64,000 nt of DNA from Escherichia coli (GCF_050920415.1 NZ_CP169309.1), one strand, 5' to 3'; counted from the stretch's first letter, positions 21,001 to 27,000 are shown. A program made the numbers.

Positions 21001-24000
21001 CCCTGTTCGTCCGGTTTAGTTATCGCTATGTCTAAATGAATTTATAACAAGACTACTGTCAGGCAATTCAATAAATAATGGCGTTGAAGATGTCAACGCC
21101 ATTATTGTTTATTAGAATGTTACTTTCATACTCTTAATATTATTTCATCGCCTCCTCGCCCGTTGCCGTATTGGCATCCACCGCGGTAATGGTCACCGTC
21201 ACTGGCTTCATTTCGTACCCGCCATAAGTCAGGGCGTTAAATGTGAACGTATAGACACCAGGCTTGCTGGTACTAAATGTACGCGTGATTTTTCCGCTCA
21301 CGAAATGGTCATTTTTCGACGGCAGGAACTGATAATCCTTCTCCGTCACCCCTTCCGGCGTCTGAATGTCAACCCACATATTCCCCCCAACAGGGTTGTT
21401 TGCCGACATCAGGGTAACCTTCAGCGTTGCGGTCGATTCCCCATCTGCCACCAGAGATTCCATATCAGATGTTGCGGTGAGTACCGCATTTTTATCATCC
21501 GCCACGAAACTGGATTCAGCCGTTTTCGTTGATACCTGACCGTTGTCCTGACTCACTTGCGCCGTAAGTGTATATTTCGCTGCAACAGTCGTGGTGGCGG
21601 TGAAAATAGCCTGCCCTTGCTCATTCGTTGTCGCTGTGCCATTCGGTTCCAGGTTTAACGAAGCCGGGCTGGCGGTCAGCGTCACTTCGCTATCTTTCAA
21701 CAAATTGTTATTGGCATCAGTCACCGTAACTTTATACGTCTGTTTGGCTTTGCCATCCGCCACTGCACGGTTGCCAATCACCTCAATACTGGAGATGGTC
21801 GCCGTAGTCTTATCCGCCACAAACGTAATGCTCTTCGCGTCTGAAGGCTGGTTATTTCCTGCTGAAGCCGTGATCTCATACGTTCCGGCAGTCACTGAAA
21901 CCACCTGCAACTCTGCTTTCCCTTCATCGTTGGCTTTCACCCAGACATTATCACCTGTAAGTGGCTTGACGCCCCGAGGCAGATTAAAGGTCACCAGAGT
22001 TCCTGGAACAGGGTTACCGTTTTTATCCTCAACGGTCGCCGTCAGCGTAAAGGCATCTTTGCCGTTTGCCACTTTTTGAGCGGCAGTGTCAACCTGCAGG
22101 TTTGCCTGACCGGTGCTGGCGTCTGCGTTGAATTTCACCGTGACCGTCTTCTGAGAGTTTTTCACCGCGGCCGCGATTTCAAGTTCCCCTGCAACGGTTG
22201 ATATCAACTCAATATCCGCTTTACCTGCCGCATTGGTTGTTACTGTATTCCCCGTCTTGCTAGTCACACCCTGCGGTAAAGTCAGCGTAACTTCTTGCCC
22301 CTGCAACGGGTTACCATAGCTGTCCACGACGGTCAGGGTTACCTGGTTAGCAGACTGTCCATTTGCCAGTTGGTTATTCACCTTCACCGCCATATCACTG
22401 ATCACTGCCCGGGAAGCGTCGCCTGCAACATTCAGCATCAGTGGCTGAGCAACGGCATTTTGGCCGTTCACGCGTGGCATGACAGACAACTGACCTGCAG
22501 CCGATCCCAGCGTTAAGGTCGCCACGTAGACCCCATTACTTTGCTCTGTCCAGCTTCCAGCTGAAGGTCGCTCTGATCCCGTGCTGGCGGCACCGCTAAA
22601 CACGGGTGCATCTGGCTTCAGCCCGGTGACCGGGTTCCCGTACGCATCCTTCACGGTGAAGGTGAGTTCCGTCGTCGTTTTGACGACCGGAGCCTTATTG
22701 TCCGCAACAAGCGTAGAGTTCGCTGATGACATCTCCCCGGCAATAACAGTCAGCTGCGCGGCTTCGGTGGCTGCTGGCTGGCCGTTGAAGAGCGGCATGA
22801 CACGAAGCTCGCCCGTCTTTCCGCCTGTAGTTAACGTAGCAACATAGGAACCGTCACCTTTTTCGGTCCAACTGGAAACGGTCGCCCCTTCAGAGGCGGT
22901 CCCCGTCAAACTTGCCGACAACGAAAGACCACTAATAGCGTTGCCATGCGCATCTTTTGCAATAAGCGTCACGGTTGTGCTTTCGCCTGCTTTTACGCGA
23001 TCTGCGGCTACAGACACTGTCGACTGGCCTGAAGATAACGCATCAGCCACCACGGTCACTTTAGCCGCATTCGCTGCCGCGTCCTGCCCATTGAGCTTCG
23101 GCATAACCTCTAATTCACCCGCCGTAGAGCCGAGAGTAATTTGCGCAGTCCACGTCCCATCACCATTATTTGTCCAGCCAGATGCCGTAGAACCAGCAGC
23201 TGCTGCGCCCGATAATGACGGTGCATCCGGATTGAGGCCAGTTACAGGGTTGTCATTAGCATCTTTTGCCGTCCAGATTGCCGTAACTGTACCGCCAACC
23301 ACCGGTTTATCAGGATTCAGGGTGATGGACGAATGTGCTGCATCAAGCGGCCCGGCAACAAACTTCAGCGTTTGTTGTAACGTGCCCAGCTGATACTGCT
23401 CGCTGAAGGCACGCACAACAACGTTTCCGGCACGGGTCGAAGAAACCGTGGCGCTGTAAACCCCTGGTTTTATTTCCGAAATGGCACCAACGGTTACACC
23501 ATTAGTGTCTTGCGGAACAAGTCGCAGGCGGCTGGCTTCTCCCGTCACCGGATTACCCTCGGAGTCCACCGCTGTCAGTGTCAGCGTGTAGGCTTGCTGA
23601 CCATCAGCAACCACATCACCTGACGGCTCGTTAGCGCTCAGGGTGGAGTTTGCCACATCCATCATCGTGGCCCGCAGTTCTGCAGTGACAGTTTTGCTCA
23701 TGTCATCAACGCTAACAGTAATCGTTACCTCACCTGACTGCGTTCCGGTAGTAAAGACAGACTGATACACCCCTGCTTCAGTTTCGGTGAACTCACCCAG
23801 TGTGGGTTTTGCCTGTGATTTAGTGGCCTTCAGGGTACGAGTCACAATATTTCCAGCCGGTTTGAAGGTTAGTTCAGTCTTGATCTGATCTTTCATGCCC
23901 GTGACTGGCTGGCCCTCGGCGTCGCGCAGAGACAGCACCAGCGGCTTTTGCTCATTACCGTTAGCAAGCATTTGAATACTGCTCTGACCGTCAAGCGTTA

Positions 24001-27000
24001 ACGCCGTACGATCGGCGCTCATACCAGCTCCGCTAATAACCACTTCTGTCTGCACACGTTTCGAGGCATTGCCTTTGTTATCGTAGGCAACTGCTGAAAT
24101 CGCATAATAATTGTCTTTGCCTGGACGGTAAGCCGGGAGCGTTACTTGCCACTGACTACCCTGACCGGTAATTTTGCCACCTTCAGCCAGTAATGACGGC
24201 GCTTCCCACTGCACATTTTTCAGTCCGTGAGTTGCTTTGCTGACCACAAGCCCCAGGGAAACCGTCTGACCGCCCTTGCCTTCAATACGCTCAGGCAGAG
24301 CAATACGGATCACTTCAGATTTGCGGTACTCAAGAACGATGTTGTTATTACGCTCAACCAGGTCATAGCGGCTGCCTGCCAGCATTCGACGCTCGCGAAT
24401 GCTGTCTGTATCGAGTTGTTTTTGCAGAGGTTCGCCAATTCGGTAGTTAACTTCCAGGCCAAAGCGAGTGTCATTCTCACCACTCTTGCCCTGCTTATGC
24501 CCGGCGCTCAGTGTCAGAAGAGGCACTGGTGTATAGGTTACCTCGGCAGAAATAGCATGCGGGTCTTTCTGGCGTTTATCTTTACCAAACAGCCCGACTT
24601 CATCGCCATAATACTGCTCATACATCAGGCTTGCGCCAAGCTGCGGCCAGGCAGGTAAATAGCCCTCAGCACGAATATCCCAGCCATTCGCCGGGCGTTC
24701 CTGATAATCCTCAACATCCGGCGATTTTTTCCAGCCAGAAGCCCGGATATAACCATTGGCGCTCAGTTTCAAATAATCACGCCAGTATTCCGCACCAACA
24801 CCAATGCGGGTATGACTACGGGATAAATCATGATCGATAAAAGTATTCACCCCCGCCATCCAGTCATTTCCTGAAAAATGACGCCAGCCAAAACCAATAT
24901 TTGACTGAGTACGATCGTCGGTACGATGTATTGCCCCCTGAGTGAACAACATATTTGTCGGCGTGTCATAAATCGGATAAAGCATTTCCAGCGAAGAATC
25001 CTTCAGCGAGAAATCTTTATCGACATTCAGTTTGACGCGCGCTGTACCATATTTCCCGAGCCACTCCTGTATTTCCTGGTTAGCTTTAGCGGTGGCCATT
25101 CCGGTAATAAAGTTACGTGTCGCATCGCTATCTGGCTGACTGCTTAAAAATGTCCCGGCATTTGCGGCAAACGACGCGACATTTTTCTCCACATTATTAT
25201 CAGCAGCTACCGTGGTATTTTCCATGCTCAACCGTGGCTGAACCGCATGCTGCGCGCGTGCTGCCATTACTGGGGTAAAGGTGACAGCGAGTGGGAAAAG
25301 AACCTGAACAGAGATATTTGCCCACGCCACGCAGCGGGCCAGAACTGAATAACGAAATCGTGGTTGTTTATGACCTGTTTTATAACGTGACATTGAGATA
25401 ATTTCCTGATGAACGAATTAACGAACATAGGCAGACACAAATAATGGCGTCTGCTTGTCAGAAAAACCGGGATTTCCCGGTTTCCTTTTCCGCAGAAAAG
25501 GAAATACCTTTATGTAAGAAAGTACACCGCCACCTAATATATCCAGTGCCTGTAGCCACTCATCAGGTGGTTGGGCGCGGGATTATATTTTTATTTATGG
25601 GTGAGAATTTAGCTTTTTGTGCAAACCATTAAATAGATACCTAAGTTATCTTTCTTACTCTGCGGATAGTGAATAATTCATTATTCAGAGTGAATAATAA
25701 TGACCTGCTTTTAATTTACCACGATTGGAAATACGTCGAAGTAGGTATATACGCCAGGATAAACCAATGTATTTTTTATGGATATTCATTTTTCTTCATC
25801 GGACTGTAAATTCCGGGGATATCGAACTTGCACGACTAATCTCAACCCTCAAACAGATTTATGAATTTTGTTCATAACCCCTGACAAATCCTGCCGTCTA
25901 ATCGAGCTTTTCCCTTTACGTTATGCTTCTCATGAACGATAACACAACTTGTTCCTGAATTAACCATTCCGGATAAACTATGGGATCAAATTCAGGCATC
26001 GAAAGGAACTGGCTGGTTTCCGTTAATGGATTAAATATCTATTACTCTCCCGAGAGTAAAACTATCAAACCAATGAGTAACCGATACAGCCTCGCAAATT
26101 CTTTCAGATAATTAACCCGTCACTGCGGCACGTTCTCTCATAAGGCGTGCCTGCTGTGTAATCCAGTATGTATCCGGCATACTTGACGGTTTAATAGAAC
26201 TCAATTCCTTTCCCAGGTTACCAACAACGATATCTTGTATAACATCCCAGGAGATACGACATTATGATGAGATGAGGTATGCTCCTCAGCGCCAATCAAC
26301 GCCAGGGCTGGGCCAGTTTTGAGATCAGACTCATTCCCGGACTGACTTCAGGCGACATATATCAATGACGTTGGGGCAATAAAAGATAGCCGATGTAATA
26401 CATCTATTCAAATTTGTGATACATGTCAAAAAATTGGTTGACCAAACTCGTTATTTATATAAGGGCACTTACGAAGTGCACTCTTTTTTAAAGCGAGGAA
26501 GTACCAATGAAAGAGAATAAAGTACAGCAAATCAGTCATAAACTGATTAATATCGTTGTTTTTGTCGCAATTGTAGAATACGCCTATTTATTTCTCCATT
26601 TCTATTAATAACGGCAATAAACTGTTCACTTCAGTGATATTTAAAATATGCATCCTCTCCCTTTTTTTTAAGTAATTATTATATCCGTGGGAGAGGAATA
26701 CACGCTGTCAGGTAATCAATCAAACTGCGATAAATCATCGGCCAGTAAAGTGGAGATAGCCTCCATTCTCGAAAAATTCATACTCTCAGCGAAACCATCA
26801 TCAATCACTCATCCAGGCGTTTATGGGAGCGTCGCCAATGGCTGCTAACAATGCCAGACTTCCCCGTTGCCGAAATTCCACATACCACAAATGGTCACAG
26901 GGATTGGGTGTTGAAATGATCCGGATGAGCATGTATCTTTACGGTTATGTTATAACATAACAGGTAAAAATGATGAAACCCAATATCCATCCTGAGTATC

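Follow-up and report, generated by a model that had tools for sequence, protein, structure and literature searches.

Does a gene that encodes a long row of immunoglobulin-like (Ig-like) domains consist of repetitive DNA, and does the number of its repeats vary from strain to strain? The question is raised by a locus in a 64,000-nucleotide stretch of Escherichia coli DNA (GCF_050920415.1, NZ_CP169309.1), referred to here as the window, in which the gene fdeC (eaeH) occupies positions 21140..25393 on the minus strand. The original prediction for this locus, made from the sequence alone, was of a full-length intimin-like adhesin whose DNA would be internally repetitive and prone to repeat-number variation. 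The results given below indicate that the open reading frame (ORF) is almost certainly an intact allele of fdeC encoding an FdeC-type inverse autotransporter (type Ve) adhesin, in which the number of modules is fixed and the diversity is allelic and recombinant.

Identity and occurrence of the gene

The ORF listing and the translation gave an ATG start, 1417 codons and a stop, with zero internal stops, and a product of predicted mass 149.4 kDa and pI 5.3. An identical coding sequence (CDS) of 4254 nt (100%) is named fdeC by RefSeq in NZ_CP169399.1, strain MFDS1022581 (WP_000092569.1), and the coordinates agree. The FdeC fragment deposited in the Protein Data Bank (PDB) as 4E9L matches aa 595-1008 with ∼95% identity over 414 aa (E = 5e-245). 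Using megablast, a match to fdeC was found in 5078 of 5426 complete E. coli genomes, with at least 80% of the gene covered in 4585 of the 5426, and the matched genes are annotated throughout as 'fdeC: inverse autotransporter adhesin FdeC'. The gene order around the locus is ecp operon, ykgL, ykgO/ykgM, ykgR, fdeC, ykgA-like gene, aldo/keto reductase and rcl genes, and the position of fdeC between the ykgA-like regulator and ykgR/ykgMO/ecp recurs with the identical allele and in K-12. The known FdeC/EaeH proteins (ECOK1_0290 of IHE3034, EaeH of enterotoxigenic E. coli H10407 and the protein of 4E9L) are equal to that of the window in gene, locus and architecture, the published length being 1416 aa as against 1417 aa here. 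The prediction of a full-length FdeC/EaeH intimin-like adhesin in a 1417-aa ORF is thus borne out by the identical RefSeq CDS, the synteny, the PDB matches and the Pfam matches described in the next section. It was also correct in regarding the K-12 counterpart as disrupted. BW25113 keeps only nt 1-876, followed by IS3 and a truncated ykgA, and a disrupted fdeC in K-12 was likewise published by Nesta et al. 2012 (PMC3324786).

Several shorter plus-strand ORFs overlap fdeC and were taken to be shadows of this long gene on the opposite strand. The GC fraction is ∼0.37-0.46 in the flanks and 0.51-0.57 in the passenger-coding part.

Some points weigh against the identification. An FdeC-specific model was absent from the NCBIfam scan, in which only other inverse-autotransporter models matched, all of them under their cut-offs. 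The protein is 92-97% identical (amino acid) to the alleles of 042, O157:H7, ATCC 11775 and EC24, and the window allele is rare, one of the 5426 complete genomes having a copy at least 99% identical to it and the next best being 98.5%. The signal peptide and the steps of secretion set out below are proposals. Nothing was found, however, that contradicts the fdeC identification. The fdeC of the window is a known, ordinary gene whose coding sequence holds nothing new, and FdeC is the prototype of the FdeC-type inverse autotransporters in E. coli.

Domain architecture and comparison with intimin and invasin

Reading from the N-terminus of the translation, a long Sec-type signal peptide is predicted at about aa 1-47 (25253..25393, minus strand, as are all the domain coordinates that follow; MSRYKTGHKQPRFRY...TPVMAARA, with cleavage before QH). 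By eye, the n-region is basic, the core is hydrophobic and A-R-A can be recognised as a cleavage motif. The sole cysteine of the whole protein, C21, lies within the putative signal peptide, and the mature protein is without cysteine. A short linker leads to the IAT_beta barrel, the translocator domain, at aa 76-357 (24323..25168), which was defined by Pfam and PDB matches. Pfam IAT_beta (PF11924) covers aa 76-350 with E = 3.4e-109 over profile positions 3-279 of 279, and in the PDB search aa 113-357 match invasin 4E1T (E = 8e-83) and intimin 4E1S (E = 1e-70). The Ig-like domain nearest the barrel, D00, spans aa 358-459 (24017..24322) and is recognised from the intimin D00-D0 structure 6TQD, which matches aa 358-466 with E = 1e-12.

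The remainder of the protein was divided into modules using an iterative self-hidden Markov model (self-HMM) together with structural matches and domain-by-domain alignment, a whole-protein self-blastp having given the diagonal only. The self-HMM finds nine modules over aa 460-1417, making ten Ig-like domains with D00. Modules R1-R2 (aa 460-684, 23342..24016) are supported by the self-HMM and by Pfam Invasin_D3/Big_1, and the 4E9L construct begins within R2. Modules R3-R5 (aa 685-997, 22403..23341) form an Invasin_D3-like subgroup with 39-48% mutual identity, and their region is ∼95% identical to 4E9L. The ordered part of 4E9L, residues 678-991, contains three Ig-like domains extending over 126 Å (PMC3324786). 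Modules R6-R8 (aa 998-1300, 21494..22402) form a Big_1 subgroup with 28-39% mutual identity and include the best Pfam Big_1 stretch, aa 999-1089. For the distal tip domain, R9 (aa 1301-1417, 21143..21493), an AlphaFold2 model predicts an all-beta, Ig-like fold that has a short helix at its C-terminus. Over the whole protein Pfam places Invasin_D3 in nine stretches and Big_1 in six. This annotation and the self-HMM confirm the predicted array of ∼100-aa Ig-like modules, and both the count of ten domains and the mass of 149.4 kDa fit the 10 Big domains and 150 kDa given for FdeC by Heinz et al. 2016 (PMC4943183).

A model of R8-R9 made with AlphaFold2 (predicted local distance difference test score, pLDDT, 91.5) contains two all-beta Ig-like domains plus the short terminal helix, and Foldseek matched it best to Ig tandems from intimin, invasin, InvE and InvD. 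As modelled, the tip of FdeC is Ig-like, unlike the lectin-like one in which intimin and invasin end. The lectin-like domain of these two proteins contains a disulphide and, since mature FdeC has no cysteine, such a disulphide cannot form.

The nature of the tip bears upon whether the protein could be a true intimin (Eae) or an invasin, with a lectin-like tip binding Tir or beta-1 integrins. The IAT_beta barrel and Ig-like passenger domains are common to these proteins and FdeC, the NCBIfam intimin model gives a match with E = 2e-115 and the 4E9L entry is labelled 'Attaching and effacing protein'. The match to the intimin model, NF033627, nevertheless reaches only 386.7 bits, the cut-off being 1400, and extends over aa 62-662 only. 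The intimin of enteropathogenic and enterohaemorrhagic E. coli is, like FdeC, a type Ve protein with a homologous barrel (4E1S), a D00 domain (6TQD) and an Ig-like passenger, but it has a LysM periplasmic domain and a C-type-lectin-like Tir-binding tip that are absent from FdeC, in which Pfam found neither LysM nor Intimin_C at E ≤ 0.01. The passenger of intimin is also much shorter, the NCBIfam model having 939 positions, than the ten Ig-like domains of FdeC. Invasin, InvD and InvE of Yersinia pseudotuberculosis resemble FdeC in their Big_1/Invasin_D3 modules and in the homology of the barrel to 4E1T. The R8-R9 model superposes best on the InvD/InvE Ig tandems, with template modelling (TM) scores of 0.54-0.59, and the sequence identity of the passengers is 16-24%. 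Invasin ends in an integrin-binding D4-D5 superdomain with a lectin-like fold whereas FdeC would end in a plain Ig-like domain, and the sequence match to 1CWV is limited to aa 1006-1140 within the Ig array, stopping short of the C-terminal tip. The chromosomal context of ykg and ecp genes and the published identity of FdeC to intimin and invasin, ≤35% over selected regions (PMC3324786), also speak against the intimin or invasin assignment. Given the score below cut-off, the missing LysM domain and a tip that is Ig-like rather than lectin-like, this assignment is refuted and its probability is judged to be negligible. SinH (SivH) of Salmonella and the invasins of the YchO/YchP type have a homologous IAT_beta barrel as well (NF033423, E = 5e-91; NF007556, E = 3e-85). 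Their models match under cut-off, cover the N-terminal third only and have 730 and 454 positions compared with the 1417 aa of FdeC.

With the protein of the window identified as FdeC, the following route to the cell surface can be proposed. The long Sec signal peptide would bring the protein to the periplasm, where the IAT_beta domain (aa 76-357) would insert into the outer membrane as a beta-barrel. The C-terminal passenger would then be threaded outward through the barrel by the hairpin-type translocation expected from knowledge of the family. The passenger would form a rod of the ten Ig-like domains D00 and R1-R9 ending in the Ig-like tip, with a length of about 40 nm if the published 126 Å per three domains (∼42 Å each) holds throughout. 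The exposed protein would bind epithelial cells and collagens, promoting biofilm formation and colonisation. For FdeC of CFT073, assembly dependent on the beta-barrel assembly machinery (BAM) and assisted by the translocation and assembly module (TAM), as well as surface exposure, has been found by experiment (PMC4943183). FdeC of IHE3034 binds epithelial cells and collagens I, III, V and VI (PMC3324786), and published work describes the promotion of biofilm and of kidney and bladder colonisation. PMC3324786 also reports phenotypes in adhesion and colonisation, and protection by vaccination in a urinary-tract-infection model. According to PMC11143625, citing Easton 2014, fdeC is silenced by H-NS and expressed at ≥39 °C, and published work describes its detection only at such temperatures or on contact with host cells.

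Module number, allelic diversity and selection

The modular nature of the protein, with nine to ten units of ∼100 aa, would be in keeping with a contingency-type adhesin in which the DNA of tandem Ig modules slips or crosses over unequally, so that module number varies by strain. The DNA itself, however, is repetitive only to the level expected by chance. Tandem Repeats Finder (TRF) found zero tandem arrays inside fdeC, and the top off-diagonal match in a sensitive self-blastn of the gene was of 35 nt with 77% identity and E = 0.05. A repeat finder reported only 35-nt matches of 63-77% identity at a spacing of 306-309 nt. Exact direct repeats reach 12 nt at most; in 100 codon shuffles the longest repeat averaged 11.8 nt, with a maximum of 17. 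Simple-sequence tracts are lacking from fdeC, in which the longest homopolymer is 6 nt. Between modules the identity is 11-48% for amino acids and 27-52% for codon-aligned nucleotides. With the modules so anciently diverged (at most 48% amino acid identity), there is no substrate for slippage or homologous recombination. The expectation of internally repetitive DNA thus failed.

Variation in length between strains was assessed from the window allele, five fetched alleles, an evenly spaced sample of 30 genomes, and protein clusters. The window allele and the five fetched and translated alleles are all of 1416-1418 aa. The 30 sampled genomes gave 27 near-full-length matches, and in 26 of these the span varies by no more than a few bases. 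The large FdeC protein clusters (17949, 3112 and 3064 members) have lengths of 1417-1418 aa. These data do not bear out the predicted proneness to repeat-number variation.

Length variants do occur in the protein database but are rare. A form of 1630 aa (P0078, 234 member sequences) has two additional Ig domains, R5-like in sequence, inserted after R4 and before R5. These are only 38-46% identical to the neighbouring R5, which makes the insertion or duplication an ancient one. Scattered FdeC proteins of 1148-1327 aa have modules fused out of register, for example position 83 of R1 to position 24 of R4. Among complete genomes, the fdeC of IAL7250 (locus L003, 1501-5092) is a pseudogene from which 666 nt are missing between 21-nt matches, one in R6 and the other in R8, again out of register; it is also frameshifted and carries a 1-nt indel. 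In the literature it is sequence variants rather than repeat-number variants that are described, hundreds having been reported (PMC11143625). There are no near-identical DNA units, and frequent whole-unit differences are not seen in the strains compared. The reading of fdeC as a repeat-number-variable surface protein is therefore refuted and can be considered highly improbable. The array of Ig modules is ancient, with a fixed and genetically stable number of modules, and length variants are rare.

The diversity of FdeC is instead found in its sequence. Compared with five other alleles, the FdeC of the window has 92-99% amino acid identity, ranging from 98-99% in the barrel down to 72-92% in R7-R9, and the differences cluster distally, in modules R6-R9. 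R9 is among the most variable parts, falling to 76%, while R7 reaches 72%. This agrees with the conservation gradient along FdeC, coloured from blue to red, described by Heinz 2016 (PMC4943183). The fdeC of N96 is a mosaic, identical to the window allele in D00-R2, R7 and R9 and 94-97% identical in nucleotide sequence in R3-R6, a pattern that indicates recombination inside the gene. The diversity of FdeC is thus allelic divergence plus recombination, growing towards the distal domains, and not gain or loss of repeat units. As to the rarity of the window allele noted above, the flanks of the gene across the neighbourhood 19045-28413 are at least 99% identical in only one or two of the 5426 genomes and 95-98% identical in most, so that the region as a whole, and not fdeC alone, comes from an uncommon allelic lineage.

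The ratio of non-synonymous to synonymous divergence (dN/dS) is 0.20 for fdeC overall, 0.05 in the barrel and up to 0.36 in R8, remaining below 1 in every domain. Purifying selection acts on every FdeC domain. The possibility of positive selection at the tip finds no support, given that dN/dS is at most 0.36 and that the synonymous divergence (pS) also rises distally. This distal rise is a sign of old allelic lineages that recombine, and not a demonstration of positive selection. The same ratios bear upon whether fdeC could be a decaying or silent relic that is intact in the window by chance. The truncation of the gene in K-12, pseudogene copies such as that of IAL7250, the ∼490 of 5078 matching genomes that cover less than 80% of fdeC and published work in which expression was undetectable below 39 °C (PMC11143625) would all suit a relic. 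The low dN/dS, above all in the barrel, would not, and most genomes by far, as well as other Escherichia species, carry an intact fdeC whose length stays constant. The leader of the gene is highly conserved, and the published adhesion, colonisation and vaccine-protection results recounted above also argue against a relic, which is regarded as very unlikely.

The fdeC leader, the convergent regulator and the chromosomal surroundings

Upstream of the intact fdeC lies a leader of ∼200 nt (25394..25592, minus strand) that is predicted, from folding and conservation, to be structured. The folding energy of -66 kcal/mol (z -4.8) corresponds to four hairpins, all on the minus strand: H1 (25524-25578), H2 (25482-25503), the terminator-like H3 (25466-25481; CCGGGAAAUCCCGG then five U, ∼70 nt before the ATG) and H4 (25431-25454). 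A TATAAT box is present at 25582-25587. Following H3 comes a U-tract (UUUUCUG) at 25458-25465 whose predicted pairing partner is the Shine-Dalgarno sequence, CAGGAAA (25402-25408). The AGGA bases of the latter have a predicted unpaired probability of at most 0.14 at 37 °C, rising slowly with temperature. The leader is single-copy and without RefSeq annotation in 5035 of the 5426 genomes. It is at least 97% identical in nearly all of the 5035, while most matches to the fdeC CDS are 90-95% identical, and it is near-invariant in E. marmotae, E. whittamii, Escherichia sp. E2562 and E1V33 and the 1630-aa lineage. K-12 has kept it as well. H1 and H4 are supported by covariation, five pairs showing double changes. 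In H2, H3 and the anti-Shine-Dalgarno helix there is no variation, and covariation neither supports nor refutes them. A scan of genome contigs for the exact pattern of the H2 core found four loci only, in E. coli, E. whittamii, Escherichia sp. E1V33 and a 280-bp contaminant-like contig, which makes the diversity of the leader thin for a covariation analysis.

Rfam gave no match at gathering thresholds over 18000-30000, and an E-value search of 25380-26100 gave chance-level hits only (E ≥ 1). The literature searched for eaeH with small RNA (sRNA), or for fdeC as an RNA thermometer, contained nothing relevant, and a simple sigma-70 scan showed no convincing promoter directly upstream of fdeC. 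A short ORF in H1 (MSGYRHWIY) was rejected, its ATG being missing in E. marmotae and the 1630-aa lineage. It is tentatively suggested that the leader may be an undescribed cis-regulatory RNA, with H3 as an attenuator and a heat-labile helix over the Shine-Dalgarno sequence, or else that it may contain a separate sRNA of ∼115 nt ending at H3, at 25461-25466. The two proposals together are thought rather doubtful, and the leader is to be taken as a lead and not a result. It is the only lead with discovery potential at this locus. If the proposal were true, an attenuator or thermosensor leader would contribute to the silence of fdeC below 39 °C and could explain, at a stage after transcription initiation, its temperature- and contact-dependent expression.

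At the other end of fdeC a ykgA-like regulator gene runs towards it on the plus strand at 20162..21019, encoding 285 aa with an AraC-family helix-turn-helix (HTH) and a GyrI-like domain (Pfam HTH_18, HTH_AraC, GyrI-like). Its mechanical ORF opens at a GTG at 20129, with an in-frame ATG at 20162, and the annotated homologues are of 858 nt. Between the two convergent genes, and common to both, a hairpin is found at 21074..21106 on both strands, AATAATGGCGTTGA-N5-TCAACGCCATTATT, with a perfect 14-bp stem containing five G-C pairs and a 5-nt loop. It lies 33 nt past the fdeC stop and 54 nt past that of the ykgA-like gene. Its predicted folding energies on the two strands are -21 and -22 kcal/mol (z = -6.8 and -5.5 versus shuffles) and the tails, UUAUUUAUUGAAUU and UUAUUGUUUAUUAG, are A/U-rich on both strands. 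Six other alleles, the 1630-aa variant among them, keep the stem, and the loop and the flanks or spacer vary. The hairpin is best read as a predicted bidirectional intrinsic terminator. In this respect the original prediction, which placed a convergent terminator between fdeC and the AraC/GyrI gene, is upheld by the stem, the folding z-scores, the U-rich tails and the conservation.

The AraC-HTH/GyrI-like gene remains convergent with fdeC in three different chromosomal contexts (the window and loci L009, L019 and L021). This synteny suggests that the pair forms a two-gene module, possibly with a regulatory link. In NZ_CP169399.1, alone among the complete genomes in carrying the identical fdeC, the ykgA-like regulator (L001, 16375-18567) is split by IS2. 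It is intact in the window. The segment with the aldo/keto reductase and ykgA is covered to at least 80% in only 2929 of the 5426 genomes. On the other side of fdeC, annotation transferred from a 100%-identical stretch of NZ_CP169399.1 gives a frameshifted ykgL at ∼27411-27637 (minus strand), and annotation from the same genome gives a 90-nt remnant of a hypothetical gene between ykgR and fdeC at 25945-26034 (plus strand).

The gene for the 1630-aa protein P0078 (L009-L012, gene at 5001-9893) has kept its conserved leader as well as its convergent AraC/GyrI neighbour. The gene adjoins sulfatase, radical-SAM and sbmA-like genes and hipBA, and not ykgR/ecp, and the fdeC of E. marmotae (L019, L020) has the same context. 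A paralogous fdeC-like gene (P0111 and P0108; L017, L018, L022) encodes proteins of 1414-1416 aa with ∼80% identity. It is situated in a mobile-looking context of DUF4942, PerC, MarR and ParA genes with the AraC/GyrI neighbour absent. Only the last ∼75 nt of the leader are kept in the paralogue and these are not significantly structured (z -0.8). The paralogue probably accounts for the 10-11 plasmid matches among complete genomes.

FdeC is a widely conserved adhesin of E. coli and a vaccine candidate, and the intact fdeC in the window means that the source strain, unlike K-12, retains this colonisation factor. The antigenic diversity of FdeC resides in the distal domains, whose variation is allelic and mosaic, and this bears on vaccine design and on typing.

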